59,124 nucleotides of DNA, taken from IMG/VR virus record IMGVR_UViG_3300020306_000005, positions 1 through 59,124 of that record. One strand, 5' to 3'. Within the stretch, counting starts at the first letter, position 1; the number at the start of each line of letters is the position of its first letter. The stretch is from a virus (taxonomy: Duplodnaviria > Caudoviricetes). Under the pieces are notes generated by a model, which saw only the letters and a program-made list of their open reading frames with translations, had not been told where the DNA came from and ran no database searches. Shown piece by piece: positions 6,356 to 29,673 of the stretch. Both the position numbers and the translations under genes were made by a program.

Positions 6356-6358
6356 TGA

Positions 6359-6387: not shown

Positions 6388-6390
6388 GAT

Positions 6391-7476: not shown

Positions 7477-8405
7477 TGGCAACAACAGAACAAACCGTAA
7501 TAAATAGACAAGCACCTTTTTTAGAGGATTATGCTCGTAAGTTATTAGAGTCAGCATATCAAAAATCAGGACAAGAAATAGACATACCTGATATACAAAT
7601 AGCTGGATTTACCCCTGAACAACAAAAAGCTGTAACGATGACTAAAGAGGGCATAGGTGGGTTTCAACCTTTTTTAACAGGTGCAGAAAAAGAACTTGAT
7701 GCAATAAGAGATCAGCCTTCTGTAACTGAGGCTTATAGTCCAGAGGGTATCGCTAGATTTATGAATCCTTTTACAGACGAAGTCATAAAAGCCACAGAGC
7801 AAGATTTATTAAGACAAGGAGCCATGGCTCAAAACCAACTTGCAGGAAACGTAGTTGGTTCAGGTGCTTTCGGTGGTTCAAGATCAGGTATTGCAAGTGC
7901 TTTATTAGCAGGTGATACTTTAGATAGAATAGGTCAACAGTCTGGTCAGTTGAGGGCAGCAGGGTTTGAGTCAGCTTTACAACAAGCTCGTAATTTAGCT
8001 GATGCTCAAATAAGAGAAAGAAGTTTAGCTGGAGCGTTAGCAGGACAAAGAGCAGGATTGGGTGAATTACAACAAAGGTTAGGTCAACAAGATATAGCTA
8101 ACTTATTAGGTATTGGTTCTTTACAACAAGGACAAGCACAGGCATTGCTTGATGCACAGAGACAATCTGATTTACAGCAAGCTTATGAACCTTTCCAAAG
8201 ATTAGGGTTCTTTAGTGATATATTAAGAGGTGTACCAAGTGCTTCTCAAACAGTTACTGCAACAACTGCACCTACACCATCTTTACTTTCTCAGATAGGT
8301 GGTGTTGCTGCAACTGGGTTAGGTCTTGCTGGTCAATTAGGGTATAGACCTTTCGCAGACAGTAATAAGAGTGGAAACACAGGAATATTTAAACCATTGG
8401 CATAA
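7476..8405 (+). CDS. DNA ejection/pilot protein
   Basis: Q/G/A-rich; FMNPF and GAFGGSRSG motifs. Confidence 0.65.
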   Translation: MATTEQTVINRQAPFLEDYARKLLESAYQKSGQEIDIPDIQIAGFTPEQQKAVTMTKEGIGGFQPFLTGAEKELDAIRDQPSVTEAYSPEGIARFMNPFTDEVIKATEQDLLRQGAMAQNQLAGNVVGSGAFGGSRSGIASALLAGDTLDRIGQQSGQLRAAGFESALQQARNLADAQIRERSLAGALAGQRAGLGELQQRLGQQDIANLLGIGSLQQGQAQALLDAQRQSDLQQAYEPFQRLGFFSDILRGVPSASQTVTATTAPTPSLLSQIGGVAATGLGLAGQLGYRPFADSNKSGNTGIFKPLA

Positions 8406-8408
8406 AAC

Positions 8409-10931
8409 ATGAGTGATATTTTAAAACAAATTAATAATCCTTTATTTCGAACACCTGGATCACGATTCATGAGTCAAGGTGGGGGTATTACAGGTATACC
8501 TAACAATATGAGTGTGCGACCTGATAATATGAATATGAGTATAAATCCTAATTTAAATTTATCATTAGGTCAATCTTCTTTAAATGATATAAAGGAAGAG
8601 GATGCTAAAAAAGTTGGATTATCTATTCTTTCACAAGATAATATAAATGCCACAAAAGATAAAATAGATGATTTATCAAAAGATAAAGATGTTGATATTC
8701 AAAAAGATTTTTCGACTGACATAGAAAGAATAATGGCAGGACTGACTAAAATAACAAATGCTTCTCCAACTAAAGTACAAAAACTTTATGAAGAACAATT
8801 AGAAAATAAACCTACCCCTGAAAAGTCTTTAAAAAAAGTAAACACTTTTTTTGGTGTAGATGCTAATAAACAAACTCCTGCATGGGCTGATGCTGCACTT
8901 GCAATAGGTGCGTCTTTATTAAAACAACCAAAAGCAGGAGAGACAGCTTTACAACAAGTTGGAACTGCTCTTGCTGCAGGAGGTGTTGCTGCAAAAGCAA
9001 AAAAAGCAGAAGTTGCAAAAAAAGATTTAGCTATTAAACAACTTGGGTATCAACAGTTTGTAAGAGACCAAGCAGATTATGATAAAAAAGCTATCGCCTT
9101 TGAAAATTATTTAGAAAAAACAGAAAAAAGTAAAAAAGAGGGTGTAAAAAATTTAGTAGATATATTTTTTAAAGGTAAAAAATTTGGTTTAGATCAAAAA
9201 AAGTTTTTATTAGAAAAGAAAGGTTATTCTTTAGACGAAAAGAAGTTTAATTTACAGTTTAAAGAAGATATAGCTGATGCTTTTTCAGCTGGAGTTAAAG
9301 TTCTTCCTGAAAAATTAAGAGGAAAAGCATTAGGAATTATTTTTGATACTAAAAATAAAAAATTTATAGAAGGAATAAATTCTCCTGAACAAGTATTGCC
9401 TACTATTTATTCTCTTTTAGCGAAAGAAAATGAGTTTAAATTTGAGATTCCTGATGACGGAAAAAATATGGTATCTAGGACTTTTAAAATAACAGATCCT
9501 CAAACATATGCAGTATATAAAGAAAAATTTCCAGAGCAATTTAGTCAACCATATGACCCTGCAAAAACATATACCATTCATGGTTTTGTAGATAAAACTG
9601 CTACAGGTGCACTTATAAATAATATTAGTCAGCCCACTGTTTCTTTTACAAATACTATTAAACCTTCGAATATTGCAGCATTAGAAAGCGAAATTAAAGG
9701 ACTTGAAAAACGGATTCTTGCTGGTGGTATAACTGCAGAAGAAACAGACACTTTAAATGAACAAATAAAAAGTAGAAAAAATGCAATAAACAAGTTTGGT
9801 GAATCTCAAACTCAGGTAATGTTCCTAGATGAAGATGGTAATTTTAAGTATGCTAGTGGTTCAGCTAAAGATATAGCAGGTGGTCTTGATACTCAAAAAA
9901 ATAAAGATAACATAGAAAAATATAATTCAGGAAAAAATAACTTTTTAAGATTAATTGCTTTATCTGATATAATTTTAAGTAAAGCAGCAGATCCAAACTT
10001 TGCAAAAGCAACAGGTTTTTATAGTAGGTTTGGAGATTTTCTTTTAGGTGCACAAAACCAGTTTAAAGCTTTTACCACTGATGTTGCTTATGCTGGTGAA
10101 GAATATCAAAGATATAAAAGTGGGATAGTTGATGCAATTATAGCTAATCCAAATGGCGAAAATGCTCAAGAAAATAAATTTATACGAAATGTATTTACTA
10201 ATTTTAAAGAAGCAACTAAAGGTAATCAAGTTGTACAGTCAGCTATCATGGATATAGCTTATGCATTAGCAGGTAGTCGTGAAACAGGAAAATTAACTGA
10301 TAAAGATATTGCTATGTCTTTAGAAACAATAGGTGGTCGAAGTTTTGCAGAAAAAGATTTATTTACAAATCCAGAAAGATTAAAACAAGGTATTCGTAAC
10401 GCTGTAAAACAAGCAAATATAGACTTTGGACTACGAGCGTCTACTTATTATAAAGCATCTAGAGATTACGAAAAAAGACAAGGTAATGAAGATTATGAAC
10501 TAATAAAGTATGATCCAATACGTTTAGTAAAAGGAACTTTAGAGGATATTTATCCAGGAATAAGTGAACGAGTATTAATAAACAAAAAACCTGGAGGTGG
10601 GTTAGAATTTGTTCCTGATGCATGGTATAAAGAAAATGTATATAATATAAAAACGCAAAATTATAATGATGATTCTAATAATTTAAAAGAAGGGTTTAAA
10701 CTTGGAGAGAACACTTTTAAAGATGTTTCTACTTTAGCTAATTTTGTTTTAAGAGCATCAACTAATACAGGTGAATTTGCAAACTCTCCTTATACATTCC
10801 AAACTGAAGATGGTGCTGTAGGAGGAGAAGACGCTATAAAATTGTTAATAACAAGAATAACAAAAAATTTAAACGAAGAGCAAACTGAGCAATTTTTAAA
10901 ACAAATAGGATATCAACCAAAGAATCAATAA
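8409..10931 (+). CDS. large internal virion protein
   Basis: 840 aa helical ORF in the ejection-protein cluster. Confidence 0.5.
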   Translation: MSDILKQINNPLFRTPGSRFMSQGGGITGIPNNMSVRPDNMNMSINPNLNLSLGQSSLNDIKEEDAKKVGLSILSQDNINATKDKIDDLSKDKDVDIQKDFSTDIERIMAGLTKITNASPTKVQKLYEEQLENKPTPEKSLKKVNTFFGVDANKQTPAWADAALAIGASLLKQPKAGETALQQVGTALAAGGVAAKAKKAEVAKKDLAIKQLGYQQFVRDQADYDKKAIAFENYLEKTEKSKKEGVKNLVDIFFKGKKFGLDQKKFLLEKKGYSLDEKKFNLQFKEDIADAFSAGVKVLPEKLRGKALGIIFDTKNKKFIEGINSPEQVLPTIYSLLAKENEFKFEIPDDGKNMVSRTFKITDPQTYAVYKEKFPEQFSQPYDPAKTYTIHGFVDKTATGALINNISQPTVSFTNTIKPSNIAALESEIKGLEKRILAGGITAEETDTLNEQIKSRKNAINKFGESQTQVMFLDEDGNFKYASGSAKDIAGGLDTQKNKDNIEKYNSGKNNFLRLIALSDIILSKAADPNFAKATGFYSRFGDFLLGAQNQFKAFTTDVAYAGEEYQRYKSGIVDAIIANPNGENAQENKFIRNVFTNFKEATKGNQVVQSAIMDIAYALAGSRETGKLTDKDIAMSLETIGGRSFAEKDLFTNPERLKQGIRNAVKQANIDFGLRASTYYKASRDYEKRQGNEDYELIKYDPIRLVKGTLEDIYPGISERVLINKKPGGGLEFVPDAWYKENVYNIKTQNYNDDSNNLKEGFKLGENTFKDVSTLANFVLRASTNTGEFANSPYTFQTEDGAVGGEDAIKLLITRITKNLNEEQTEQFLKQIGYQPKNQ

Positions 10932-13867
10932 TGGATTTAAATAGAATTATAGACCAAGTACTGTCAGAAAAGTTGATACAAAGCTCACAACAAAGTAAGC
11001 TCAGTAACGCTGTTCCTCAAATTATTCCTCCTTCTATAGATATGAAAGAAGTTGTTGGAGACTCATCTTCAGATCCAGCCCTTACAGGAGGTTTTGCAAA
11101 AGGGACAGAAAAACTACTAGCTGATCAATCTCTACCTTTACAAGATCCAAGATTAACAGCTATGAAAAATTTAAATGTTTTAAACATAGGTGCACCAAAA
11201 TCTGTACGAGCATTTATAAGTTTAGGACAGATGTCAGATCCTGAGTTACAAAAGAAAAATATAAATACTCAGCTAATGTCTCATTACAAAGAAAAAGGAT
11301 TAGTTTCTGATGACTATGATTTTGGATTAAGAATCGGACCAGCAAGTAAACAATTTGAATTCAAAGATCCTAATTTTGGTGGTCAATATAATATTATTGA
11401 TCCTATTGGTTTAGAAGGTGGTGACTTTGCTGATTTAGCAGGAGATATACCTACTTTAGTTAGTGAGGCATTTGCTGGATATTATGGCTCAAGAAAAGGT
11501 AGTTTTGTAAAAGGGTTAACATATTCTGCAGCAGCAGCATATATAACAGAAATGCTTCGTTTAAAAGGTATGCAACTTGCAGGTAAGTTACCAGAAAATT
11601 TAAATCTTGACGATTTTCACAGCACAGCATTAGATACAGCCCAGTGGAGTGCTTTAGGGGGAGCAGGTGGACAAATTGCTTATAAAGTAATGAGACCATT
11701 ACTTAGTACTGTTGGGCTTCTTCCACCAAAACTTCGTATGGATATGGATGAAGATACTTTTATAAAAGCATGGAATAGTTATAAAGACTCACCAGAAGCT
11801 ATGCTTGCAAAAGAACTTGATGTTCAACCAACCTCTGCTCAAGTAGCACAAATAGGTGCAATGAAAGCACCAGCAAGCGAAAAAGCGAAGTTTGAAGATG
11901 TTGCTTCTTTATTAGCTTTAGAAGAAAAGAAAGTAATGACTTCTCCTTCTGTAAAAACAGGAGCAGAGGTTCGTATTCCAACAATCGAAGCAAAAGCAAA
12001 AGCAACAGATATTTTAAAAACAAAAGCAGGAGAAGGTGTAGAGACATCTCGAATACCAAATATAGACGAAAAGTCGTATTTAGAAGTAGGTCAATTTGTT
12101 AAAGAGGCATCTAAAAATAATTATGAACAAGCAGTAAATGTATTAAATAAAAACGTAGACGATCAAATCGTTGATTTAGAAACACAACTTGGTAATATTG
12201 TAGATCTACCTGACAATGTTGTAACTCCAGGAAAAGTTGGAGAAGTATTAAAAGAAACTCTTGACCAATCTTATGTAAAAATAAAAAAGGGGTTTGATAG
12301 AAGTTATGAAAATATTTATAAAACATGGGAAGACGCAACAGGAATTACTAGAGATACCATTTTAAAAGAAGGACAAGTAATTAAACCTGCAGAATTATTA
12401 AATGAAGTAGAAACTATTAAAAAGACTTTTGCTAATAGAGCTTTTGTAGATAAAGAAGAAAAAGAATTAATTAATAATATTTATAATACATTTACAGTAT
12501 TAAATCCAAATACAAATAGGCGAAAGCTTGTTCCTGTTTCGTTAAAAACAATAACAGAAAATTTGAGAGATTTAAAAAGATTAGAGAGACAAGCTTATAA
12601 AAAAAGACTATCAGGAGCAGATGCACCTTATGCAGATACATTATCAAATTTAGTCGAAAAATTAGAAAAAACTCGAAGTAGAGTATTATCAAGAAAAGGA
12701 GTTCCAGAGGGGTTATCTGATTCGTTAAAAGCTTTAGATGATAGTTTTGCATCTTTTGCTACAAAATTTAGAAGCACTCAAACTTCAGCTATCGCTAAGA
12801 TAAGAAAGAGGACAACAACACCAGAGGACGCATTTAATATTTTATTTAAAAAAGATAGTAAAGGTCAATCTCAAGTATCAGAGCTTACTGACGAATTAAA
12901 AAAAGCAGAAAATTTAGAGCTTAATGAATATGTAAGCGATAGTATACGAAATAAATGGTTAAATACAGTTGTTACTAGAGATCGAAGAACGAACGCTATA
13001 ACCAGTATTAATTTAAAAGCCCATGAAAATTTTATAAATGAATATGGTACTCTATTTAATAATTTTTTAAGTAATGCAGAAAGAAGAGCTCTTAGTACAG
13101 GTACAGTAAAAGAGTTTGGCGAAGAGTTAGTAAAGACACAAGTAAATAAAGCTCAAAAACTAAATGAGTTAAAAACACTATTAAAATTAGAAGGTGGTGA
13201 ATTACTTAAACCAGAAACTTTATTTAAAGAGGTATGGCAACAAAAAGAAATTAGTAAGTTTAGTAGAGCTTTACCTTTAATAAAACAGAACGATGAAATT
13301 TTTGACTCTTTTAAAGCATTGATTTATAAAGATATGTTTGATCCTCAAAATAAAATGACTTTAAAGCAAGGTAATCTTATTGTTCCTAATTTAGATAATT
13401 TTATTCCATATATTCAAAATAATAAAGCAAAGTTACAAGATGTTTTTGGTTCAGAATATGTTACAAATTTAGAAAAAGTAGTAGATGCAATAAGACCAGC
13501 ATTAACAGATGTTGTTCCTCGTTCTGTAAAAGAGGACAATAATATTGTTACCACTGCCTTAAGAAGTTTTGTTGGCGTATTTACTCGACCAGGAAGAATT
13601 TTAACAGCGATAAATAAAGCAAGAGGAAGATTAAGAGAAGATGCTCTAGTCCAAGGATTAATCAATCCTGAAAAACTTGCACTCATGGCAAAAGCAACTA
13701 AATTTTCTCCTGAACATTCTCAAGCTGTAACAACTCTTGGTCGAATATTTTTTGGTGACGATAGAGCATATGCTACAGAGGATGAAATGTTAAATGTTGA
13801 TAGACCAGAAACAGCAAAAGCATTAATACTTGAATTAGAAAGAAACAGAAGAAACAGTAACAGGTAA
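10931..13867 (+). CDS. large internal virion protein
   Basis: 978 aa helical ORF coupled to the upstream gene. Confidence 0.5.
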   Translation: MDLNRIIDQVLSEKLIQSSQQSKLSNAVPQIIPPSIDMKEVVGDSSSDPALTGGFAKGTEKLLADQSLPLQDPRLTAMKNLNVLNIGAPKSVRAFISLGQMSDPELQKKNINTQLMSHYKEKGLVSDDYDFGLRIGPASKQFEFKDPNFGGQYNIIDPIGLEGGDFADLAGDIPTLVSEAFAGYYGSRKGSFVKGLTYSAAAAYITEMLRLKGMQLAGKLPENLNLDDFHSTALDTAQWSALGGAGGQIAYKVMRPLLSTVGLLPPKLRMDMDEDTFIKAWNSYKDSPEAMLAKELDVQPTSAQVAQIGAMKAPASEKAKFEDVASLLALEEKKVMTSPSVKTGAEVRIPTIEAKAKATDILKTKAGEGVETSRIPNIDEKSYLEVGQFVKEASKNNYEQAVNVLNKNVDDQIVDLETQLGNIVDLPDNVVTPGKVGEVLKETLDQSYVKIKKGFDRSYENIYKTWEDATGITRDTILKEGQVIKPAELLNEVETIKKTFANRAFVDKEEKELINNIYNTFTVLNPNTNRRKLVPVSLKTITENLRDLKRLERQAYKKRLSGADAPYADTLSNLVEKLEKTRSRVLSRKGVPEGLSDSLKALDDSFASFATKFRSTQTSAIAKIRKRTTTPEDAFNILFKKDSKGQSQVSELTDELKKAENLELNEYVSDSIRNKWLNTVVTRDRRTNAITSINLKAHENFINEYGTLFNNFLSNAERRALSTGTVKEFGEELVKTQVNKAQKLNELKTLLKLEGGELLKPETLFKEVWQQKEISKFSRALPLIKQNDEIFDSFKALIYKDMFDPQNKMTLKQGNLIVPNLDNFIPYIQNNKAKLQDVFGSEYVTNLEKVVDAIRPALTDVVPRSVKEDNNIVTTALRSFVGVFTRPGRILTAINKARGRLREDALVQGLINPEKLALMAKATKFSPEHSQAVTTLGRIFFGDDRAYATEDEMLNVDRPETAKALILELERNRRNSNR

Positions 13868-19262: not shown

Positions 19263-19610
19263 ATGGATAAAAAACAACCTACAGTTTATGTAGTACAAGA
19301 TTTTGGTACCAAGAATATCTCTGGTGCTAGAAGATTTGGTGAAATAAAAGTTTTACTACCACCTAATAGACAAATCGTTTTAAGTTCTGCCCCAACCGTT
19401 TCAAGGTTGAGGGAAGGCTTAAATGGTTTTTCAGACGATGACTATTTACTGTTAATGGGAGATCCTGCTGCAATCGGTATAGCTTGTAGTATCGCATCAA
19501 ACATTAATGGTGGAAAGTTTAAAATGTTAAAGTGGGATAGACAAGAAGCTTTATATCTTCCCATTAATATCAACCTTAAATACTTTGGAGAGTATGATGA
19601 ACAATCTTGA
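19263..19610 (+). CDS. conserved hypothetical protein
   Basis: Strong RBS; DDYLLLMGDP and LKWDRQ motifs. Confidence 0.7.
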   Translation: MDKKQPTVYVVQDFGTKNISGARRFGEIKVLLPPNRQIVLSSAPTVSRLREGLNGFSDDDYLLLMGDPAAIGIACSIASNINGGKFKMLKWDRQEALYLPININLKYFGEYDEQS

Positions 19611-20157
19611 CGATATCCTCAGTGGTGAGGCGTTAAATACCATAAATGTCAAGGCGACACCTGATGAGTTAAACAGGTTAAGCAGATTGGCAAACGAACT
19701 TATCCATAAACAAAACGAAGTAAAAGAATTAGAAGATTCTATTAAGGCGTTTAAAGATAGGATAAGACAAATCTCCGAACAAGAAATACCTGACTTTTTA
19801 GCAGAAGTTGGGTTATCGAGTTTCGAGTTAGATAATGGCACTAAGATTAAGGTTGAGCCTTTCGTTAGGGCTCACATATCTAAAGACCGATCAAAAGAAG
19901 CACACGCTTGGTTAGAGGATAATGGTTTTGGTGACATTATTAAAAGAGAAGTGAACTGTAAGTTTAATAAAGGCGATAATAAATATGTCGAACTAAAAGA
20001 TAAGCTTGACGATTTAGGACAGTCTTATACGACTAAAGAATCAGTTCACCATGCAACTTTAAATTCATTTGCTAAAGAACAGATGGAAAAAGGAACAGAT
20101 ATTCCTATGCAACTATTTGGTCTTTACAGTGGATTCATAACTAAAATAACTAAATAA
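19594..20157 (+). CDS. conserved replication-region protein
   Basis: WLEDNGFGDIIK and VHHATL motifs; GGAG RBS before ATG 19594. Confidence 0.65.
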   Translation: MMNNLDDILSGEALNTINVKATPDELNRLSRLANELIHKQNEVKELEDSIKAFKDRIRQISEQEIPDFLAEVGLSSFELDNGTKIKVEPFVRAHISKDRSKEAHAWLEDNGFGDIIKREVNCKFNKGDNKYVELKDKLDDLGQSYTTKESVHHATLNSFAKEQMEKGTDIPMQLFGLYSGFITKITK

Positions 20158-20167
20158 GGAGGATATT

Positions 20168-20962
20168 ATGGCTGAAAAAGCAGTTGCAACAAAAGAAGAT
20201 ACATCTATTGTTACTATAAATGATGATCTTTTATTAAATGGAACAGGATTAGAGGATACAACATCAGAAGATTTTGCTATTCCTTTTATTCGTATTATAC
20301 AATCTGGTAGTCCACAGACTAAAAAAGCTGATGGTAAATATGTAAAAGGTGCTGAAGAAGGCGATATCATAAATACTGTTAGTAACCAAATTACTGGGGG
20401 TGAGTCAGGAATATATGTTGTTCCAGTCTATTACCAAAAGAAGTACATCGAATGGAAGCCAAGAGAGTCTGGTGGTGGGTTAGTTAATGCTGACCATGAA
20501 AGGACTATACTTAATCAATGTACACGAAACGAAAAAAATAAATTCGTTTTAGAAAACGGTAATTACATTGACGAAACAGCACAGTTCTATGTGATGGTAA
20601 CTAATGCAGAGGAAACTGAGTGGCAACAAGCAGTTATTAGTATGTCATCTACACAGCTTGGTAAAGCTAGAAAATGGTTAAGCCAGATGAAACAAAGACG
20701 TGTAAAGAATAGTAAGGGTGATTTAGTTGAAGCCCCAATGTTTATGTTTCGTTACTTAGCTAAAACTATGTCAGAGTCTAATGATTTAGGCAGTTGGTAT
20801 GGTTGGTCTATAGGTTTAGATAAACCTGTAAAAGATCAAAACTTTTTAATGGAAGCGAGTAGTTTTCTAAAAAGTGTACGTGCTGGTGAAGTAAAAGTTA
20901 AGCAAGAAGATTCTAACGAGGACTCTGCTAACTCTAAAGATACAGACGAAGTACCGTTCTAA
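20168..20962 (+). CDS. putative ssDNA-binding protein
   Basis: IPFIRIIQSGSPQ motif; acidic tail ending DEVPF. Confidence 0.65.
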   Translation: MAEKAVATKEDTSIVTINDDLLLNGTGLEDTTSEDFAIPFIRIIQSGSPQTKKADGKYVKGAEEGDIINTVSNQITGGESGIYVVPVYYQKKYIEWKPRESGGGLVNADHERTILNQCTRNEKNKFVLENGNYIDETAQFYVMVTNAEETEWQQAVISMSSTQLGKARKWLSQMKQRRVKNSKGDLVEAPMFMFRYLAKTMSESNDLGSWYGWSIGLDKPVKDQNFLMEASSFLKSVRAGEVKVKQEDSNEDSANSKDTDEVPF

Positions 20963-21012: not shown

Positions 21013-22548
21013 ATGACAAAAAAGATAGAGGAAGAATTTGCTGATTTATTCGCTGGATTAAAAAAGGCATATGGTAGTTACTCACCAGAAGAGGGTAACG
21101 GAGTTGGAAAAGAAAAAGGTAGATATAGAATTATATCAGAAGATATAGACGAAGATCGTTTATATGAATTATGGAAAGAACATCTCGCAGGAAAAAATTC
21201 ATTAGGTATTATACCAATACAAGAAGATAATACTTGCACTTGGGGTGCAATAGATATTGATCAATATCCACTTAATCATGGGGAACTTGTAACTCGACTT
21301 ATACAAACAAATGAATTACCTGTAGTTATCGCAAGATCAAAGTCAGGTGGTGCACATATTTACTTTTTCTTAAAAGAACGAGTAAGCTGTGCAATCGTAC
21401 AAAATAAATTAAAAGAAATAGCTTCTGTACTTGGCTATGCAACAGCTGAGATATTTCCTAAACAAACTAAATTACTTTTAGAAAAAGGTGATAGAGGTAG
21501 TGTATTAAATATGCCTTATTATGGGGGTAGTCGAACGACTAGATATGCTCATAATAAACAAGGTGAAGCTATAACAGATTTAGAAGAATTTATTACTTAT
21601 GCAAAAAGTCAAGCTATAAGTAAAGCAGAACTTGAAAGTTTAAAAATAAAATCCCAAGAACTTAATGATAAAGATTTAGATGGCTGTCCACCTTGTATAA
21701 AAGTATTATGTACTATGGGGTTTCCACAAGGCACACGAAACAATGGACTATTTAATATTGGCGTGTTTCTTCGAAAGAAGTTTGCAGACGATTGGGAAAA
21801 GAGAGTCGAACAAAAGAACTTTGAATATATGAAGCCACCACTCGGTGCATCAGAAGTTTTAACAGTAATAAAAGCATTAAATAATAAAGACTACCAATAT
21901 AAATGTAATGATCAACCTATCGCTTCACATTGTAATGCAGCAGTTTGTAGAACTTGTGAATATGGCGTAGGGTCATCTGGTGGATTACCACAGTTTAGTA
22001 ACCTACAAAAACAAGATTCTACACCACCGATATGGTTTTTAGATGTTGAGGGACACCGAATAGAATTAACTACAGATGAACTTCAAAACCAAACTAAGTT
22101 TCAAAGAAGATGTATGGATGAATTAAACTTTATGCCTTTAACTATGCGACAACAAAACTGGAGGACAGTCGTTCAACAATTACTTGATAGTGTTTCTATA
22201 ATAGAAGTTCCAGCAGATGTATCGTTACAAGGGCAGTTTAAAGAACTACTTGAATCGTTTTGTACAGAACGAGCCCAAGCTTTATCAAAGGATGAAATAT
22301 TATTAGGAAAGTCTTGGACAGAGGAAGGAAAGACTTACTTTCGATTAAAAGATCTGATAGACTATTTTAATCGACAACAGTTTCGAGACTATGGAAGAAA
22401 TCATATTGCTGCACGCTTGAGAGATTTAGGGGGTGGGGATCATTTCTTTCATATAAAAGGTAAAGGCGTAACAGTTTGGTATGTCCCTGAGTTTGGTAGT
22501 CAACAAGAGGGTTATGAAATACCAGATATGAAAGGGGATCCATTTTGA
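21013..22548 (+). CDS. archaeo-eukaryotic-type primase with PriCT-like domain
   Basis: AIDID and RSKSGGAHIYF AEP motifs; PPC...GTRNNGLF; Cys cluster. Confidence 0.8.
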   Translation: MTKKIEEEFADLFAGLKKAYGSYSPEEGNGVGKEKGRYRIISEDIDEDRLYELWKEHLAGKNSLGIIPIQEDNTCTWGAIDIDQYPLNHGELVTRLIQTNELPVVIARSKSGGAHIYFFLKERVSCAIVQNKLKEIASVLGYATAEIFPKQTKLLLEKGDRGSVLNMPYYGGSRTTRYAHNKQGEAITDLEEFITYAKSQAISKAELESLKIKSQELNDKDLDGCPPCIKVLCTMGFPQGTRNNGLFNIGVFLRKKFADDWEKRVEQKNFEYMKPPLGASEVLTVIKALNNKDYQYKCNDQPIASHCNAAVCRTCEYGVGSSGGLPQFSNLQKQDSTPPIWFLDVEGHRIELTTDELQNQTKFQRRCMDELNFMPLTMRQQNWRTVVQQLLDSVSIIEVPADVSLQGQFKELLESFCTERAQALSKDEILLGKSWTEEGKTYFRLKDLIDYFNRQQFRDYGRNHIAARLRDLGGGDHFFHIKGKGVTVWYVPEFGSQQEGYEIPDMKGDPF

Positions 22549-24047
22549 GCGAGGATACAAGTTCATGGTCTATTATACTTGGTCCACCAGGAACAGGTAA
22601 GACAACGACTATCTTAAACCTTATCGAAATGGAAATGGAAAAAGGTACACCTCCTGATAAAATAGGATATTTTGCTTTTACTAAGAAAGCCTCGGAAGAG
22701 GGTAAAGAAAGAACAATGTCACGTTTCGGACTTGCAGGAAAAGATATACCTAATTTTAGAACACTTCATTCTTTATGTTATCGTATGTTAGGCTTATCGA
22801 GAGAATCTGTTATGGGACGTTCTAACTATAGAGAGTTTAACGATATAATGGGAATGCGATTAACAGGAGAGATGACACTTGAAGAGGGTGCTATTTCTAT
22901 GTTATCAAAAGACGATAAACTAAAATTTGTTGAAGGACTATCACGTCTTCGATGTGTAGGACTACGACAAGAATGGCAAAATCATCATGATGAAGATATT
23001 GATTGGCATATGTTAGAAAGGTTTTCATTAGGGCTACAGAAGTTTAAAAAGGCACGTGGTCTATATGATTTTACAGATATGCTAGACTTATGTGTAACAA
23101 AACAATTATCTCCAAAATTAGATGTAATGTTTGTAGACGAAGCTCAAGATTTAAGTCCTTTACAATGGCAGTTAATAAGAGTCCTTGCAAAGAATTCTAA
23201 GAGAGTCTATATTGCTGGTGATGATGACCAAGCTATTTTTAGATGGGCAGGGGCAGATGTAAATTTCTTGATTGATATATCCCAAGGGGCTCGTGTCTTG
23301 GAAAAGAGTTATAGAATTCCTAAAAGGATTTTCAATATCGCTAATCAAGTAATAAGGCGTGTTAAGACAAGAACAGATAAAATTTGGCAACCAAGGGAGG
23401 ACTTGGGTGATGTCGTTACCGAAACACATTTCGAGCATGTTGATATAACCTCTGGCGAATGGTTAATTCTATCACGTTCTAATTATTTTTTAAATGAAGT
23501 AGAAGCACATTGTAGAGGATTAGGTGTTTACTTCGATAGAAAGAATAATCCTTCTATATCACAGAAAAAAGTCGATGCAGTAAAAAACTGGGAGAAGTTA
23601 AGAAAAGGTGAGTTTGTTTTCCCTGATCAAGCTAGTGATATTGTTCAGTATATAAAGGGGGCTAAACGAAAAGTATTTGATGACTTAGAGTCATCGTTAA
23701 AGTTAACTCTTAAAGAAGTAACAGTAAAAGCAGAACTACCTGAAGCAAAAATATGGCATGATATGTTTACAGGGTTAAGCCCTCACGAAAGAAGTTATAT
23801 CTTAGCCATGCTACGAAAAGGTGAGAAGATAACTAAAAAGCCTAGAATAACTTTATCAACTATACATTCAGCTAAAGGAGGAGAAGCTGATAATGTAATT
23901 CTTTTTACAGATATACCTCATAGAACTTGGAAAGCGTATGAAAAAGAACCTGATGATGATACTCGTGTATTTTATGTAGGGTTAACAAGAGCAAAACAAA
24001 AACTTCATATTATACAACCGACAACGAATAAATATTTTATGGTATGA
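22545..24047 (+). CDS. UvrD/Rep-like SF1 helicase (TTG start)
   Basis: GPPGTGKT, VDEAQD, GDDDQAIF, TIHSAKGGEAD and YVGLTRA motifs. Confidence 0.92.
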   Translation: MSEDTSSWSIILGPPGTGKTTTILNLIEMEMEKGTPPDKIGYFAFTKKASEEGKERTMSRFGLAGKDIPNFRTLHSLCYRMLGLSRESVMGRSNYREFNDIMGMRLTGEMTLEEGAISMLSKDDKLKFVEGLSRLRCVGLRQEWQNHHDEDIDWHMLERFSLGLQKFKKARGLYDFTDMLDLCVTKQLSPKLDVMFVDEAQDLSPLQWQLIRVLAKNSKRVYIAGDDDQAIFRWAGADVNFLIDISQGARVLEKSYRIPKRIFNIANQVIRRVKTRTDKIWQPREDLGDVVTETHFEHVDITSGEWLILSRSNYFLNEVEAHCRGLGVYFDRKNNPSISQKKVDAVKNWEKLRKGEFVFPDQASDIVQYIKGAKRKVFDDLESSLKLTLKEVTVKAELPEAKIWHDMFTGLSPHERSYILAMLRKGEKITKKPRITLSTIHSAKGGEADNVILFTDIPHRTWKAYEKEPDDDTRVFYVGLTRAKQKLHIIQPTTNKYFMV

Positions 24048-24058
24048 TAAAAAATAAC

Positions 24059-24087
24059 TTTATTGATTTTAAAAAAACGTATATCTT
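24059..24087 (+). promoter_or_regulatory. putative promoter TTTATT-17-TATCTT for the modification/PolA operon
   Basis: AT-rich gap followed by AGAAAGGA RBS. Confidence 0.45.
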
Positions 24088-24124
24088 AATATAGTAAATT
24101 TTTATTTAAAGAAAGGATGAATTT

Positions 24125-24409
24125 ATGTCAGAAGATACTAAAAATTTTGGTATAGAAATAGAAGATGATATTCCTGTGCCTCCAGGATCTGATCGTAGGT
24201 CTGTTGAAAGAAAATATCCATTAGCAGAATTAAAAGTAGGTCAGTCTTTTTTCTTACCTTTAGAAGAGGGAGATGATTTAAAACGTATGGGTAATCGTTT
24301 AAGCCAAGCTAGACAAGGCTATCAAAAAAGAAACGAAGGTGTTCGTTTTACACAGCGTATGTGGGAAAAAGACGGTGAAGTTGGAATAAGAGTCTGGCGA
24401 ATAGAATAG
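24125..24409 (+). CDS. small putative DNA-binding protein
   Basis: IEDDIPVP...KYPLAELKVGQSFF...GIRVWRIE pattern. Confidence 0.65.
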   Translation: MSEDTKNFGIEIEDDIPVPPGSDRRSVERKYPLAELKVGQSFFLPLEEGDDLKRMGNRLSQARQGYQKRNEGVRFTQRMWEKDGEVGIRVWRIE

Positions 24410-24418
24410 GAGGAAAAC

Positions 24419-25267
24419 ATGGCATCTATAAGAAGAAAATTAGTAGAAAATGCAAACAATTCTAAGAATACTAGAATGGATATTGCAGGTGCAGGAGTTA
24501 TGGCTAACTGGAGACCAGACGAACTTGCTCATATAAGTCGGTTCTGTAAGATAGGACAGATAATTATGGATGAAGCAAAACGTCTTGGTAGACCAGTCGA
24601 GTGTTTAGAAGCTGGGTGTGGAGAATTATGGGTTCTTCGATATCTATATAAAGCCTTTGTTTCTAAAAAAGAAAAGATAATTAAGCAGTATGTAGGAGTC
24701 GATATCGATCCAGCTTGTTTAGAAGACTGGTGGGTAAACGATAGTGAGTCTGTAGTAAAACATCAATGGTTTAAAACGATGACAGGTAACAACCCTTTTA
24801 GTCGTATTGATATTCAAGATTTAACTACTAATCCAGAGTTCGATGTTCCTAACGAAACCATAGATGTGTTTTGGTCTACAGAAGTTATTGAACATATGAA
24901 ACCAGATGCAATAGATTATTGGTTGCGTAGTGCATATAAAAAGATGCGAATGGGTGCAGTAGCTTATATATCAACACCTAATCATGATGGATCTAATGAT
25001 AAATTACCTAAAGACCATTTTTATGAGTGGGGGTTTGAAGAATTAAAAGAGTTGTTAAGTCGTTACTTTACAATAAAAGATGTAAAGGGTGTATTTACTC
25101 AGATGAATAACTTTAAGAAAAACCATCGTGCTAATATGAGATGGTCACAAAACGTGATTGACGATATAGAGGCTAGGTTTGATAAGCATTGGGCTAGAGT
25201 TATCTTAGCAACAGCTTATCCTGAGACAGCAAACAACTGTGCTTGGATATTAAGAAAGGAAGTATAA
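24419..25267 (+). CDS. class I SAM-dependent methyltransferase (non-DNA-MTase type)
   Basis: LEAGCG motif I, VGVDID, TEVIEHM and ISTPN; no DPPY/NPPY or PC motif. Confidence 0.85.
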   Translation: MASIRRKLVENANNSKNTRMDIAGAGVMANWRPDELAHISRFCKIGQIIMDEAKRLGRPVECLEAGCGELWVLRYLYKAFVSKKEKIIKQYVGVDIDPACLEDWWVNDSESVVKHQWFKTMTGNNPFSRIDIQDLTTNPEFDVPNETIDVFWSTEVIEHMKPDAIDYWLRSAYKKMRMGAVAYISTPNHDGSNDKLPKDHFYEWGFEELKELLSRYFTIKDVKGVFTQMNNFKKNHRANMRWSQNVIDDIEARFDKHWARVILATAYPETANNCAWILRKEV

Positions 25268-25461
25268 TGGCAAAATATAAAAGTGATGATCTAGATAATG
25301 TGTGTAGAGAGATGCTTGGTCATACAAACTGGGGGTATATAGAACCGTACTCAGGTAAACAGTTTGAAAAATTAAAGAAGGATCATGACATCGACTGTAT
25401 TGTTGTCTTTTTTAAAGATCCTGATCCAGAGGATGCACCAGATCAAGCTTATGATTGGTAG
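25267..25461 (+). CDS. hypothetical protein (64 aa)
   Basis: AAGGAAG RBS; start overlaps the MTase stop codon. Confidence 0.6.
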   Translation: MAKYKSDDLDNVCREMLGHTNWGYIEPYSGKQFEKLKKDHDIDCIVVFFKDPDPEDAPDQAYDW

Positions 25462-26297
25462 TAAAAATGATACCTGAAAGACGCTTCTTTTGGTGGATAG
25501 AGGAACGACATGAAATTTTTAAGAAAAAAGAACAAGGTCTTCCTCGTCCATGGACAACAGATATAATATTAGATACTTATCGTTTTACTAATCCTTTTCG
25601 TGAAAACGATAAGACAACAGTTTGGTTTCGTGAAAATATGAGAAAGCCACTTCATAATAGAGAAGAAGTATTTATGGCTACAATAATTTTTAGATGGTTT
25701 AACTTAATTCAAACTGGAGAAACATTACTAAAACATAATCTTCATATAGATTGGGATCCTGAACTTGCTAGAGAAGAAATAAAAAAGCAAGATAAATATG
25801 TTACTGGAGGATATATAATCAAAACACCAGATGGTATGGATAAAGTCGATGGTGTTATTTGGTGCATAGAAAAAGTATGGAATAAACGAGACCGAACTAT
25901 GGTAGAACTGCTTCATGAAACAAATACATTAAAAAGGGCTCATCTTCTTTTACAGCAGTTTCCTTATCTAGGGCATTTCATGGCTTATGAAGTTGTGTGT
26001 GATTTAAGGTATACTTTTTATTTAGATAAATCCTTTGACATTGTTCATTGGGCTAATGCTGGTCCAGGAGCCATGCGAGGATTAAATAGAATCCATGCAA
26101 GAGATTTAAACTATACAAGTAAAAAGCACGACTGGAACGCAGAGATGAAAGCCTTATACAAATTAAGATACGACTATCTTCCTTATGAGATTGCTCATAA
26201 AATGGAGATGCGAGAAATAGAACATAGCTTATGCGAGTTTGATAAATATGAACGAGTTCGTAATGGCGAGGGTAAACCGAGAGGATTATACAGATGA
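25455..26297 (+). CDS. aGPT-Pplase1 / 5-hmdU DNA kinase helical-domain family protein
   Basis: ERHEIF, PWTTDIILDTYRFTNPFRENDKTT, FRWFN, GHFMAYEVVCDL, GPGAMRGL and IEHSLCEFDKY motifs. Confidence 0.8.
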   Translation: MVVKMIPERRFFWWIEERHEIFKKKEQGLPRPWTTDIILDTYRFTNPFRENDKTTVWFRENMRKPLHNREEVFMATIIFRWFNLIQTGETLLKHNLHIDWDPELAREEIKKQDKYVTGGYIIKTPDGMDKVDGVIWCIEKVWNKRDRTMVELLHETNTLKRAHLLLQQFPYLGHFMAYEVVCDLRYTFYLDKSFDIVHWANAGPGAMRGLNRIHARDLNYTSKKHDWNAEMKALYKLRYDYLPYEIAHKMEMREIEHSLCEFDKYERVRNGEGKPRGLYR

Positions 26298-27340
26298 AAA
26301 CATTTTTAGGTAATAACGTAGAAGAAGTTTTTCAAATTGCTCTTATGTCTCTAAGAGAAAAGAACGAAACAGTAAGAGTAAAAAGTCGAAATGGAGATGT
26401 ACTTATGTTTCCTGACCCAGTTTGTTCGACTTATAAATATCCTAATCAAAGAGTTTTATTTATGGCAGAAAGGAACTGTAATCCTTTCTTTCATTTTATA
26501 GAAGGACTTTGGATGTTAGCAGGTCGTAGAGATGTAAAACCTCTAGCAAGATTTGTTAAACGCATGGAAGAATATTCTGATGATGGACATTCGTTATATG
26601 GGGCGTATGGTTATCGTTGGCGAAATCAATTTGCTAATGATCAACTACACGCTATTATAAGAAAATTACAAGAAAATCCATATGATAGACGTATTGTTCT
26701 TTCTATGTGGGATCCTATTAAAGATTTATATTATGATGGTAAAGATGTACCATGTAATACACAGATTTATTTTAAAACTAGACCAGATGATATTCTTGAT
26801 ATGACTGTGATGTGTAGGTCTAACGATTTAATCTGGGGTGCTTATGGTGCAAACGCTGTGCATTTTAGTATGCTACATGAATACGTTGCTTCAATGTCTG
26901 GTCTACACTTAGGTCGATATCATCAAGTAAGTAACAATGCTCATGTATATATAAATATATGGGAAAGGTTAGAAAAGAAATTACCGATAGGTATAGCCCC
27001 AAGTCAATATAACGATGAAATAAAATCATTACCTTTAGTACAAGATGGTTCTAAATTTGATCAAGATGTAAAATGGTTTTTTAATTTAATTGCTGATAAA
27101 GAAAATAATGAGCAGTTAGGTGGTATGTGGATAACACCTGATCACTTTGCAAATACAAATACATTTGCACATACTGCTTTACCTATGGTAGAGGCTTGGA
27201 ACTTCTATAAAAACAAAGAGTTCGAGCATGCAATCGCCCAAGCCTCTACGATCCAAGCACCTGATTGGAGAAGAGCATGCATAGAATGGCTAGAAAGGAG
27301 AAAACAAAGCTATGACAAAAAGGGAAAAAATAAACGATGA
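26294..27340 (+). CDS. thymidylate-synthase-family enzyme, probable dUMP hydroxymethylase
   Basis: GAYGYRWR, RRIVLSMWDP, catalytic PCN, RSNDLIWGAYGAN (Asn indicates dU specificity), HVY. Confidence 0.85.
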   Translation: MKTFLGNNVEEVFQIALMSLREKNETVRVKSRNGDVLMFPDPVCSTYKYPNQRVLFMAERNCNPFFHFIEGLWMLAGRRDVKPLARFVKRMEEYSDDGHSLYGAYGYRWRNQFANDQLHAIIRKLQENPYDRRIVLSMWDPIKDLYYDGKDVPCNTQIYFKTRPDDILDMTVMCRSNDLIWGAYGANAVHFSMLHEYVASMSGLHLGRYHQVSNNAHVYINIWERLEKKLPIGIAPSQYNDEIKSLPLVQDGSKFDQDVKWFFNLIADKENNEQLGGMWITPDHFANTNTFAHTALPMVEAWNFYKNKEFEHAIAQASTIQAPDWRRACIEWLERRKQSYDKKGKNKR

Positions 27341-27683
27341 AGAGTATGAAAAGCTACAAGAAGAAAATGAACTTCATGGCGAAGACTATAGTCGTATAAT
27401 TAACCAAGTTCATAATACTGCAATAGATGATGTCGAAGGCTTACACTTAGCTGAACAAGACTATGGTGATAGTTGGAAAAAGCGAGGGGGTATCGGTGCT
27501 TTTATGATGTTAGCAAGGAAGTGGGATCGTATAGAAAAACAAGCTGAAGATTATACTTACGATGTCTTCTTAGCTTTAAAAGAGGATAATAGAGAAGAGG
27601 GGCTTATAGACGATATACGAGACTTAAGGCGTTATCTACTCTTAGTTGAAGCCGAAATGACTTTACAAAAGAATGGTAAATGA
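27312..27683 (+). CDS. Nmad1/DUF1599-like putative dNTP pyrophosphatase
   Basis: DYGDSWKKRG...RKWDR...DDIRDLRRY, MazG-like helical pattern next to the TS gene. Confidence 0.65.
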   Translation: MTKREKINDEEYEKLQEENELHGEDYSRIINQVHNTAIDDVEGLHLAEQDYGDSWKKRGGIGAFMMLARKWDRIEKQAEDYTYDVFLALKEDNREEGLIDDIRDLRRYLLLVEAEMTLQKNGK

Positions 27684-29673
27684 GGTAAAATCTTCCCTAG
27701 AGAAAGGGAAGAAAGACATGCCAAAATATAAAAACCCTCTTCAACAACCTTTGTTTACACCTGATAGTTCTTGGATGATACCAGAAGTCTTACCTGACTT
27801 ATCAAAAGCTAAAGAAATATGTATAGACTTAGAAACATGGGATCCAAACTTAAAAGAAAAAGGTTCAGGTTGGGCGAGAAAAGATGGTCACATTGTTGGT
27901 ATTGCTTTAGCTACTGAGGGTTGGCAAGGTTACTTTCCTGTTCGACATAGGTCTGGTGGCAACTTGGATGAGAAGTTAGTCTTTAATTGGCTAAAAGAAA
28001 TGTTATCTACTAACTCAGATAAAATATGTCACAATGCTTCTTATGATATAGGGTGGTTAAAAGCAGAGGGTATTGAAGCTAAAGGTCGTATAATTGATAC
28101 GATGGTTGCTGCACCACTTATTGATGAGAATCGTTTTAGTTATTCGTTAAATGCTTTAGGTAGGCATTACTTACAAGAAAGTAAGAACGAAGAATTATTA
28201 AACGATGCTGCAGAAGCATGGAACGTAGATTCAAAGTCAGGACTTTCTGAACTACCACCCATGTATGTTGGTCCATATGCAGAGCAAGATGCTGCATTGA
28301 CTTTACGTTTATGGAAACATTTTAAAACAGAATTATCTAAACAAGATCTGTGGTCTATATTTAATTTAGAATCTTCCATTACTCCTTTGCTTATCGAAAT
28401 GAGAATGAGAGGTGTTCGTATTGATTTAGAACGAGCAGAAGAAATGTCTAAGAAGTTTCATGCAAAAGAAATGGAAGCCCTACATAAAATAAAACAGCTT
28501 GTAGGTTCAGAGGTAGAAATATGGGCTAATGCATCTATAGAAAAAGCATTTAAGAAACTTAACCTACCATATAACTTTACAGAAAAAGGATCGCCTTCTT
28601 TTCAACAGATATGGCTCGAGGAGCATAAACATGAGTTTCCTCAACTTATTGTAAAAGCAAGGAAGATGAATAAAGCAAGGACTACCTTTATTGACGGTAT
28701 GCTTATGAGTAACCAACAATCAGGTCGTATACACGCTGAACTTCATCCTTTACGTTCCGATGATGGTGGAACTGTTACAGGTCGTTTTAGTTATAGTAAT
28801 CCAAACTTACAACAAGTACCAGCAAGAGACCCTGAGATAGGAACAGCAATCAGATCCCTCTTCATCCCAGAAAGTAAATGTGAGTGGGGTGCTTTTGATT
28901 ATTCTCAACAAGAGCCAAGGCTCGTGGTTCACTACGCTGAGATGATGGAACTTCGAGGAGCCAAAGATGCAGGAGATGCATTCCGTTCAGGAGATGCAGA
29001 CTTCCATCAAGTCGTTGCAGATATGGCAGGTATACCAAGAAAACAAGCTAAGAATATTAATCTTGGTTTATTTTACTCTATGGGTGTTCAAAAGCTATCT
29101 GATAGTTTAGGGCTTACATTAGACGAGGGTAAAGAATTATTTGGTCGTTACCATGAACGAGTTCCTTTCGTAAAAGCGTTAAGCGAAAGAGCAGTACGAC
29201 GTGCTGGAGATCAAGGTAATATAAGAACATTACTTGGCAGACGTTGTCGTTTCGATAAATGGGAACCAATGCAGTTCGGTACAAGAAAAATTATGGATCA
29301 TAAAACTGCCTACGCTGAATATGGTAATGCTATTAAAAGGGCGTTTACACATAAAGCTATGAATAGATTAATACAAGGTAGTGCAGCAGATATGACTAAA
29401 AAAGCAATGCAACTTTTATACGAAGAAGGAATTATACCTCACGTTCAAGTACACGATGAATTAGACTTTTCAATCGAGTCTCCTGAACAAGCACTAAAGA
29501 TAAAAGATATAATGGAATCTTGTGTTGAGTTAAAGGTGCCAATAAAGGTTGATGTAGAACTTGGTCCAAATTGGGGCGAAGCAAAGGATGCAGAAAAAGT
29601 GATAGAACATGCTGAATCTGTACGAGGGTGGACTAGAGGGTCTGAGTCTGAATATACAAAGCAAGCGATATAA
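27673..29673 (+). CDS. polA: family A DNA polymerase with 3'-5' exonuclease
   Basis: DLET, HNASYD, YAEQDA; TGRFS, NLQQVP, DYSQQEPR, KNINLGLFY, QGSAAD and VHDEL motifs. Confidence 0.95.
   Translation: MVNEVKSSLEKGKKDMPKYKNPLQQPLFTPDSSWMIPEVLPDLSKAKEICIDLETWDPNLKEKGSGWARKDGHIVGIALATEGWQGYFPVRHRSGGNLDEKLVFNWLKEMLSTNSDKICHNASYDIGWLKAEGIEAKGRIIDTMVAAPLIDENRFSYSLNALGRHYLQESKNEELLNDAAEAWNVDSKSGLSELPPMYVGPYAEQDAALTLRLWKHFKTELSKQDLWSIFNLESSITPLLIEMRMRGVRIDLERAEEMSKKFHAKEMEALHKIKQLVGSEVEIWANASIEKAFKKLNLPYNFTEKGSPSFQQIWLEEHKHEFPQLIVKARKMNKARTTFIDGMLMSNQQSGRIHAELHPLRSDDGGTVTGRFSYSNPNLQQVPARDPEIGTAIRSLFIPESKCEWGAFDYSQQEPRLVVHYAEMMELRGAKDAGDAFRSGDADFHQVVADMAGIPRKQAKNINLGLFYSMGVQKLSDSLGLTLDEGKELFGRYHERVPFVKALSERAVRRAGDQGNIRTLLGRRCRFDKWEPMQFGTRKIMDHKTAYAEYGNAIKRAFTHKAMNRLIQGSAADMTKKAMQLLYEEGIIPHVQVHDELDFSIESPEQALKIKDIMESCVELKVPIKVDVELGPNWGEAKDAEKVIEHAESVRGWTRGSESEYTKQAI

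Follow-up and report, generated by a model that had tools for sequence, protein, structure and literature searches.

A methyltransferase gene linked to the thymidylate synthase–Ppl1 pair of pelagiphage-like viruses, a candidate tailoring step for hydroxymethylated pyrimidines

The virus record IMGVR_UViG_3300020306_000005 (59,124 bp), analysed over its whole length and called the window here, carries between a helicase gene and the DNA polymerase gene polA a run of overlapping or abutting genes for a class I S-adenosylmethionine (SAM)-dependent methyltransferase (MT), a 64-residue open reading frame (64-aa ORF), a clade-1 aGPT-Pplase (Ppl1), a thymidylate synthase (TS) homolog and a conserved protein of 123 residues, o123 (Table 1). 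A first-pass annotation, made by a model from the sequence alone, had described this run as a thymidine-hypermodification cluster in a near-complete genome; the ORF coordinates agree with the positions that it gave, and CheckV puts completeness at 99%. The virus is a pelagiphage-like podovirus of the HTVC023P type, its genome almost wholly covered by the window, and its polA is 50–57% identical to those of 023Pt_psg01, DSL-LC04, HTVC023P and HTVC027P, the last two being Pelagibacter phages. It is very probably one of the HTVC023P-type pelagiphages, of clades V, VIII and IX, for which the main text of an earlier study describes TS and aG/PT-PPlase1 as co-located partner genes (mSystems 2022, PMC9599517); that pair is thus already published and is not new here.

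Table 1. Coordinates of the cassette genes and of the genes bordering them in the window
Feature	Position	Strand	Remarks
MT, class I SAM-dependent methyltransferase, 282 aa	24419..25267	+	Methyltransf_23 1e-11; proposed tailoring enzyme
64-aa ORF	25267..25461	+	72 aa from TTG at 25243; variable insert
Ppl1, PF18723 HMUDK_hel	25467..26297	+	open from TTG at 25455; PF18723 1.9e-48
TS homolog, 348 aa, putative dUMP hydroxymethylase	26294..27340	+	PF00303 3.2e-24; phrog_5131 4.5e-106
o123, acidic conserved 123-aa protein, no family match	27312..27683	+	part of TS–Ppl1 core
polA, family A with 3'-5' exonuclease	27673..29673	+	DNA_pol_A 2.8e-65, DNA_pol_A_exo1 1.9e-13; downstream cassette border
UvrD-type helicase	22545..24047	+	UvrD-helicase 4.5e-34; upstream border of insertion site
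DUF7303 ORF	24125–24409		between helicase and MT

The gene junctions are tight. The ATG of the 64-aa ORF (25267) overlaps the MT stop by 1 nt, and overlaps of 4, 29 and 11 nt join Ppl1 to TS, TS to o123 and o123 to polA, respectively; Ppl1 probably starts at the ATG at 25467, because its relatives align from there. Within 21013–29673 the plus strand showed no terminator-like site whose stem is G+C-rich (at least four G–C pairs), two weaker sites with three G–C pairs each lie at 21430 and 26467, and a promoter scan returned 36 sites against 35.8 in shuffled sequence, that is, no excess.

A profile built on MT found 172 relatives in IMG/VR, and in all of the best 80 loci examined (51–98% identity, with helicase and primase down to about 50%) the order primase–helicase–MT–Ppl1–TS–o123–polA was kept as far as the sequence extends. 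Searching IMG/VR with the Ppl1 protein gave 22 loci at 66–98% identity, and MT–Ppl1–TS–o123–polA stood in 22/22, again as far as the sequence extends; in the majority of loci either 2 nt lie between the end of MT and the start of Ppl1 or the two genes overlap by 4 nt. The first-pass annotation had tied its reading to a link between the methyltransferase and the TS and aGPT genes in relatives, and that link is present in each of these 80 MT-profile loci and 22 Ppl1 loci. In the four GenBank relatives named above, the helicase gene is followed by 0–3 small ORFs and then polA, with no cassette (4/4); MT has no match in any of the four genomes, and Ppl1 is absent at the helicase/polA site, the place searched for it, in all four. 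The cassette is therefore present or absent as a block.

A broader sample of Ppl1–TS loci was drawn with a profile headed by PhiJL001 gp19, which found 539 relatives; the best 80 loci were classified using queries from the window, PaMx11, PhiJL001, AXL3 and ct3Et533. MT was present in 38 loci, HMUDK and/or amino-acid:DNA transferase (AADT) genes in 18 (with or without flavin (FAD) and acetyltransferase genes), a glycosyltransferase (GT) resembling PhiJL001 gp22 in 10, and none of these in 14. No locus combined MT with another tailoring module (0/80), so that the methyltransferase indeed stands in place of the known tailoring modules in the TS and clade-1 cluster, as had been proposed at first pass.

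The absence of an AADT, P-loop kinase, pyridoxal phosphate (PLP) enzyme, radical-SAM (rSAM) or GT gene from the window, also claimed at first pass, was borne out by profile hidden Markov model (HMM) searches, tblastn and motif scans at the sensitivity used. ADDT (PF18724), HMUDK_HMUD1 (PF18748) and DUF3310 had no match in the record at E ≤ 10. By tblastn, PaMx11 gp45–56 matched the record only through gp50, gp51 and gp55, leaving gp46 and gp49 without a match, and among PhiJL001 gp15–31 the matches were gp19, gp24 and gp28, with gp31 matching weakly (4.6e-04) and far outside the cassette. Walker A motifs in the record are confined to the UvrD helicase, one 71-aa ORF and one unannotated minus-strand frame, and it holds neither a CX3CX2C motif nor a kinase-like Walker A ORF. 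Pfam scans of 65 further ORFs, which left out about 19 small ones, mostly below 80 aa, returned structural, lysis and replication families only, with no PLP, rSAM, GT, kinase or acetyltransferase family among them.

MT relatives also recur beside TS-family genes in other phages. Among 50,697 GenBank phage records MT matched five, representing four phages at 24–28% identity, and the ct3Et533 MT used as query found the same five. The clusters of ct3Et533, AXL3 and ctUtU524 consist of MT, a PRA-PH NTP-PPase, a thymidylate-kinase-like gene, a TS-family gene (TS or ‘pyrimidine hydroxymethylase’) and a dCMP deaminase; for PW916, the same genes are listed in the gene table of its paper. Blocks N- and C-terminal to the SAM-binding core are common to MT and to the methyltransferases of AXL3, ct3Et533 and ctUtU524. 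With the ct3Et533 MT heading the profile, 418 IMG/VR relatives were found, and among the best 80 examined a TS-family gene lay within 5 kb of MT in 64. In 10 of the 16 loci without a TS match the sequence ends less than 1.7 kb downstream; for five of the other six (all but L150) whole records were searched, and three hold a TS gene just beyond the flank while two contigs end before that place. This branch is of the Asp type, in that its TS-family enzymes carry Asp at the base-specificity position discussed below (found by regular expression in 26 of the 64 loci, the other 38 showing P-Y-D or N-D by eye). It includes at least three gene orders, and Ppl1 was found in 0/80 of its loci. In one arrangement MT lies between genes for a single-stranded DNA-binding protein (SSB) and ribonucleotide reductase (RNR), about 5 kb from TS.

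The AXL3 TS-family enzyme has MilA, a CMP hydroxymethylase, as its best solved relative, with true TSs ranking behind it. AXL3 DNA is reported to resist 35 of 37 restriction enzymes and to be cut by TasI and Tru1I only (PMC7504290), two enzymes whose sites hold only A and T; restriction tests are not mentioned in the PW916 paper.

As an observation in its own right, the ‘thymidylate kinase’ genes of AXL3 (gp29; L112:7214-8197) and ctUtU524 (L113, about 7130–8050) encode proteins of about 300–327 aa, in which a P-loop kinase-like part at the N terminus precedes an extension of about 200 aa without a Pfam match; by eye, and unverified, the extension recalls a uracil-DNA-glycosylase-like domain. 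The ctUtU524 copy falls in an unannotated gap of its record.

These distributions bear on a rival view, in which MT travels as a passenger with the replication genes and acts elsewhere, on RNA, on protein, on a metabolite or on a host factor, and the DNA would carry plain 5-hydroxymethyl-2'-deoxyuridine (5hmdU) or a product of TS and Ppl1. The generic MT fold and the 14 loci without a tailoring gene would suit such a passenger, as would descent as the source of the pelagiphage linkage and the 5-kb distance from TS just described. Yet MT is present or absent together with Ppl1, TS and o123, never stands alongside kinase/AADT or GT modules, and has distant relatives that accompany TS-family genes in other lineages and in different gene orders; it also matches only 5 of 50,697 GenBank phage records, of which the three examined are hydroxymethylase clusters, and the PW916 table agrees. 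We regard a passenger role as unlikely.

The TS homolog matches PF00303 with 86 bits (cut-off 24.3), and this match and a motif alignment agree with the first-pass assignment to the TS family with a PCN active site and Asn at the specificity position. In the motif alignment the cysteine lies in a PCN motif, the RS-x-D block has Ser, and the base-specificity position is Asn, with G-A-Y-G-A-N set against the P-F-N of TS. In the published comparison of MilA, BcmA (itself a hydroxymethylase), T4 CH, SPO1 dUH and E. coli TS, Asp at this position goes with a cytosine substrate, Asn with uracil, and Ser/Arg with deoxyribose (PMC5175136). The window, PaMx11 and PhiJL001 homologs are of the P-C-N plus Asn type and those of AXL3, ct3Et533 and ctUtU524 of the P-C-T plus Asp type; among pelagiphage-type enzymes Asn occupies the position in 77/78. 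The best GenBank phage matches of the window protein are M6-like (44–45%) and PaMx11-like (39%, over 99% of the length), followed by Ackermannviridae, and its best solved relative is the CMP 5-hydroxymethylase MilA (2.8e-18), the best true TS reaching 4.3e-13. The hypermodified bases of M6-like and PaMx11-like phages are described as deriving from 5hmdU (PMC8989533). We infer from homology and active-site residues that the TS homolog is a dUMP hydroxymethylase making 5hmdUMP.

That it is instead an ordinary thymidylate synthase boosting dTMP, with no modified base at all, seems very improbable. Asn at the specificity position and the catalytic Cys are shared with true TS, and no dTTP-excluding enzymes were found in the window. 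Against this reading stand an identity to T4-type td of 23–30% over only about 36–77% of the length, compared with 39–45% over 99% of the length to the M6-like and PaMx11-like enzymes, the hydroxymethylase as best solved relative, and the constant pairing with Ppl1, whose family occurs with 5hmdU-modifying phages (PMC9599517).

Ppl1 matches PF18723 (HMUDK_hel, the former aGPT-Pplase clade 1), scoring 165.7 bits (cut-off 25) across positions 6–278 of 281, so that the aGPT-Pplase1-type label given at first pass stands over the full length. PaMx11 gp50 also belongs to PF18723, gp46 to PF18724 (‘ADDT’) and gp49, weakly, to the P-loop family PF18748 (18.1 bits, cut-off 27); since PF18723 is shared with gp50 and gp46 is PF18724, the window protein is a clade-1 paralog and not the transferase. 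Its identity is 42% to PaMx11 gp50 and 46.8% to PhiJL001 gp19, the closest among the GenBank matches listed. The AlphaFold2 (AF2) model (mean predicted local distance difference test score, pLDDT, 92.6) predicts a helix–hairpin–helix fold like that of DNA glycosylases and AADTs, with VIA Z scores of 10.8 to PaMx11 gp46/PUGT 8z2n (220 aligned residues, root-mean-square deviation (rmsd) 4.1) and 11.1 to MjOgg (187 residues, rmsd 4.4), values of about 11 being only moderate for helical folds. The family has an invariant C256 within an E-x-E-x-x-L-C-E-F-D-K-Y block, together with the hairpin NAGPGAMRGLNR. When the Ppl1 profile was aligned to PaMx11 gp46 with hhalign, the sole match was 18 columns over E-V-E-T-I-L-C with an E value of 0.2, which is suggestive but not significant. 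In clade-2 enzymes Glu, Thr and Cys at this spacing are described as metal ligands and nucleophile (PMC13458397). Clade 1 is without an assigned function in published accounts, and the route from 5hmdU to thymidine is likewise called unknown there (PMC5889632; PMC8989533); a term search of PMC8989533, PMC13458397 and PMC11472151 turned up no treatment of clade-1 function.

Its company of MT, kinase/AADT or GT modules, or of no module, frames Ppl1 as a core partner of the hydroxymethylase. One NCBI protein of 625 aa (P0124) joins HMUDK_hel (residues 2–267) to an Asn-type TS (PF00303 at 300–508) in the order of the Ppl1 and TS genes of the window; with three member sequences, it may be a genuine Rosetta-stone fusion or the product of a frameshift in the assembly. 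Separately, four Ppl1 homologs of about 500 aa (P0121, P0122, P0123 and P0125) have a conserved N-terminal extension of about 110 aa (P-G-W-Y-W ... G-E-W-G-D-E-I) and long low-complexity inserts, with PF18723 as the only Pfam match.

The retained Glu...Cys block and the AADT-like fold would allow Ppl1 to attach an amine or an amino acid to 5hmdU that has not first been phosphorylated, with MT then N- or O-methylating the adduct, and the gap of 2 nt or overlap of 4 nt between the two genes in most relatives would suit such a partnership. The known transferases need the phosphate leaving group placed by 5-HMUDK, however, and clade 1 was not needed for hypermodification in vitro (PMC8989533); Ppl1 also occurs with GT or with no module, and hence is not tied to MT, and the Asp-type MT branch lacks it. 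We judge this route improbable. A predicted complex of MT and Ppl1 scored 0.00, evidence neither for nor against binding.

MT is a virus-specific family of small-molecule-type class I SAM methyltransferases, as judged from its sequence. It matches Methyltransf_23 with 45.3 bits (cut-off 27), and its Pfam families at E ≤ 0.1 are Methyltransf_23, _12, _11 and _25 only; no DNA-methylase family appears at that threshold and no DPPY or PC/ENV catalytic motif is present, in keeping with the first-pass description of a class I enzyme lacking DNA-methyltransferase motifs. Its motif IV region reads T-E-V-I-E-H-M, and the E-x-G-C-G-E and D-I-D motifs are invariant across 26 MT sequences. Close relatives form 293 clusters of about 280 aa from marine metagenomes, the MT profile (A1) finds 34, 255 and 2229 representatives at 1e-30, 1e-10 and 1e-3, and the ESM-Atlas neighbours are viral MT clusters throughout. 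With the AF2 model (pLDDT 85.3), Foldseek returned at least 500 methyltransferase matches at E ≤ 0.001, among them cyclopropane fatty acid (CFA) synthases, the sugar O-methyltransferases AtmM and RebM, phosphoethanolamine N-methyltransferases and cap N7 methyltransferases, at TM scores of about 0.45–0.5. Longer distant relatives comprise one fusion to a C5 DNA methylase, one LAGLIDADG insertion and others that are uninformative. The fusion (P0263, 878 aa; 8.7e-14 to the A1 profile) carries the PF00145 C5 cytosine DNA methylase at residues 340–496.

The small-molecule methyltransferase fold of MT would also be compatible with methylation before replication, in which MT acts on free 5hm-dUMP (5hm-dCMP in AXL3-type phages), the product is phosphorylated and polymerised, and Ppl1 acts separately on DNA. 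Most MT homologs are acidic, and the neighbours in Asp-type clusters are all nucleotide-pool enzymes (PRA-PH NTP-PPase, thymidylate-kinase-like, TS-family, dCMP deaminase, and dUTPase or RNR). On the other hand, no phage kinase or NTP-PPase that could act on a methylated nucleotide was found in the window, the hydroxymethyl tailoring of T4 and of M6/ViI occurs after replication (PMC8989533), and the C5 DNA methylase fusion of a distant relative hints at action on DNA. We hold this order of events to be unlikely.

We arrive at the following scheme for the HTVC023P-type cassette. The TS homolog would make 5hmdUMP from dUMP, as its homology and active-site residues suggest; host kinases would phosphorylate 5hmdUMP, which would be polymerised as 5hmdU into phage DNA, by analogy with M6, PaMx11 and SPO1. 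Ppl1, a putative base-flipping helix–hairpin–helix protein that retains the Glu...Cys block of AADTs, may then act on the C5 substituent in DNA, as one member of a core common to all TS–Ppl1 phages. MT would finally use SAM on the 5-hydroxymethylpyrimidine or on the Ppl1 product as a lineage-specific tailoring enzyme, its simplest product being 5-methoxymethyl-dU and, by extension, 5-methoxymethyl-dC in Asp-type phages. A role of MT as tailoring enzyme of the hydroxymethylpyrimidine pathway, yielding a methylated base, has, on the sequence evidence, an even chance of being correct; an O-methyl ether in particular has less than an even chance. A general rule, by which virus-specific SAM enzymes O-methylate 5-hydroxymethylpyrimidines to 5-methoxymethyl-dU in HTVC023P-type phages and to 5-methoxymethyl-dC in AXL3-like and freshwater phages, is likewise less probable than not. 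The identities of the genes, the distribution of the cassette as a block, the exclusivity of MT towards kinase/AADT and GT modules and the recurrence of its family beside TS-family genes in other phages are observed. We infer, rather than observe, that MT acts on a modified base, at which level it does so (DNA or dNMP) and which atom it methylates. Of the other products suggested at first pass, a methyl phosphoester is unlikely, because no kinase was found.

Several points weigh against this scheme. The Ppl1 loci with MT all come from a single syntenic lineage, so the linkage could be inheritance alone, and the 14/80 Ppl1–TS loci without a recognised tailoring gene mean that TS and Ppl1 may suffice by themselves. 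The fold search singled out no substrate class; 21 of 26 MT homologs are acidic (pI 5.0–6.5), which, with the lack of a DNA-methyltransferase family or motif, suggests that MT may not act on polymer DNA; and a weak search for longer proteins in which MT is fused to Ppl1 or TS found none. The SSB–RNR arrangement would place the link there with the nucleotide and replication module and not strictly with TS. AXL3's restriction pattern would also fit plain 5-methylcytosine (5mC) or 5-hydroxymethylcytosine (5hmC), and the Asp-type TS may be a methylase acting on dCMP, as in Xp12. Finally, no dUTPase, dTTPase, HD nucleotidase or dCMP deaminase was seen in the window, and without such dTTP-excluding or pool enzymes replacement of T may be partial or absent.

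With regard to the nucleotide pool, in six related loci (L037, L038, L039, L041, L047 and L048, positions 5–265) the replication module is preceded by a gene for a PaMx11 gp52-like HD-domain 5'-deoxynucleotidase. Its presence in some cassette-bearing relatives and not in the window indicates that dTTP exclusion may differ between close relatives.

The two small genes of the run differ in their ties to it. The 64-aa ORF lies where the first-pass annotation had placed it, but its inclusion as a member of the cluster did not hold; only the window and its 98%-identical relative (L004, L007 and L029) have it at the MT/Ppl1 site, and in the remaining loci MT directly abuts Ppl1. Homologs are found at other places (L008:8449-8631 and L020:14386-14568), and no Pfam or PHROG family was found for it; from its sequence and distribution, this small acidic protein behaves like the product of a mobile small gene and not like a conserved cassette member.

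By comparison, o123 is present in all complete cassette loci and also in Ppl1–TS loci with kinase/AADT, GT or no tailoring gene, which makes it part of the TS–Ppl1 core and not of MT. The label ‘Nmad1-like’ that it had received at first pass could not be confirmed. Across 12 family members no Pfam match was found at E ≤ 10, the record holds no match to DUF1599 (PF07659; presumably the same as Nmad1), and o123 showed no relation to PDB sequences, to the AXL3 NTP-PPase (PRA-PH) or to PaMx11 gp53 (DUF3310) or gp54. A weak lead comes from an ESM-Atlas feature match (score 0.94) to clusters with 25% DUF1599 members.

Elsewhere in the window, three successive ORFs at 19263–20962 resemble Pam3 gp32, gp33 and gp34 (PF23992, PF23984 and PF23977); the trio lies directly upstream of the AEP-type primase and is kept in all related loci. 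In a family-level scan, the late and structural ORFs (38517–59124 and 60–13867) included one Cpn10 (a GroES-like co-chaperonin, 1.4e-08) and two C1q matches.

We found no paper on the MT link, and the word ‘methyltransferase’ is absent from the main text of PMC9599517. The literature searched made no mention of methoxymethyluracil or methoxymethylcytosine, nor of methoxymethyl together with a phage hydroxymethylase, and a search for a phage O-methyltransferase acting on 5-hydroxymethyluracil gave only work on T-dioxygenase. If the scheme is correct, these would be natural DNA bases undescribed so far and methylation a third tailoring route beside glycosylation and phosphorylation/amination. 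The hosts of HTVC023P-type phages, or of the phages that they resemble, are SAR11, which no other marine bacteria surpass in abundance. Were the DNA of these phages chemically distinct, this would bear on how they evade restriction and defence in the ocean, on how well their genomes are recovered by sequencing and on the list of natural nucleobases. That one MT family accompanies uracil- and cytosine-type TS enzymes in unrelated phages yields a prediction testable in the cultured phages AXL3 and PW916, and MT is a candidate enzyme for site-specific methylation of 5hmU or 5hmC DNA.

Among the closest known systems are the HTVC023P-type viruses of clades V, VIII and IX, with which the window shares the virus group, the TS–Pplase1 pair and its position near polA; MT and o123 as cassette members, the exclusivity of modules and the link to Asp-type hydroxymethylases go beyond the main text of that report (PMC9599517).

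The phages M6, PaMx11, ViI, PhiW-14 and SP10 use a dUMP hydroxymethylase, 5-HMUDK and a clade-2 AADT, followed by PLP, rSAM, FAD or acetyltransferase tailoring. The window shares with M6 and PaMx11 an orthologous TS (39–45%) and an orthologous clade-1 Pplase (42% to PaMx11 gp50), and with the PaMx11 series gp50–gp51...gp55 adjacent Ppl1 and TS genes in the same order, with a related polA (40%) downstream of them. Unlike M6, ViI and PaMx11, it has no P-loop 5-HMUDK, ADDT/clade-2, PLP, rSAM, FAD or acetyltransferase gene and carries a SAM methyltransferase instead. PhiJL001-type clusters comprise Ppl1, a glucosyltransferase, Nmad5, TS, an HD nucleotidase, DUF3310 and polA, their product presumably being a base-J-like glucosyl-5hmdU; here too a Ppl1–TS core occurs without a 5-HMUDK or AADT match, with a glycosyltransferase as the tailoring candidate where the window has MT.

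T4 makes its 5hmC DNA with a dCTPase, a dNMP kinase, a dCMP hydroxymethylase, a dCMP deaminase and glucosyltransferases. The AXL3, ct3Et533 and ctUtU524 clusters resemble this set in their NTP-PPase, kinase-like protein, Asp-type TS-family enzyme and dCMP deaminase, and differ from it in having MT where T4 has glucosyltransferases; the window, of the Asn (uracil) type, has none of the pool enzymes. Outside DNA chemistry, the TS-like CMP hydroxymethylase BcmA works with a SAM methyltransferase in the biosynthesis of bacimethrin, and the conversion of ho5U to mo5U in tRNA is an O-methylation of the C5 oxygen substituent on a pyrimidine. The one concerns a small-molecule antibiotic and the other RNA, unlike the window; they are nonetheless precedents for the pairing of a TS-family hydroxymethylase with a SAM methyltransferase and for O-methylation at a C5 oxygen.

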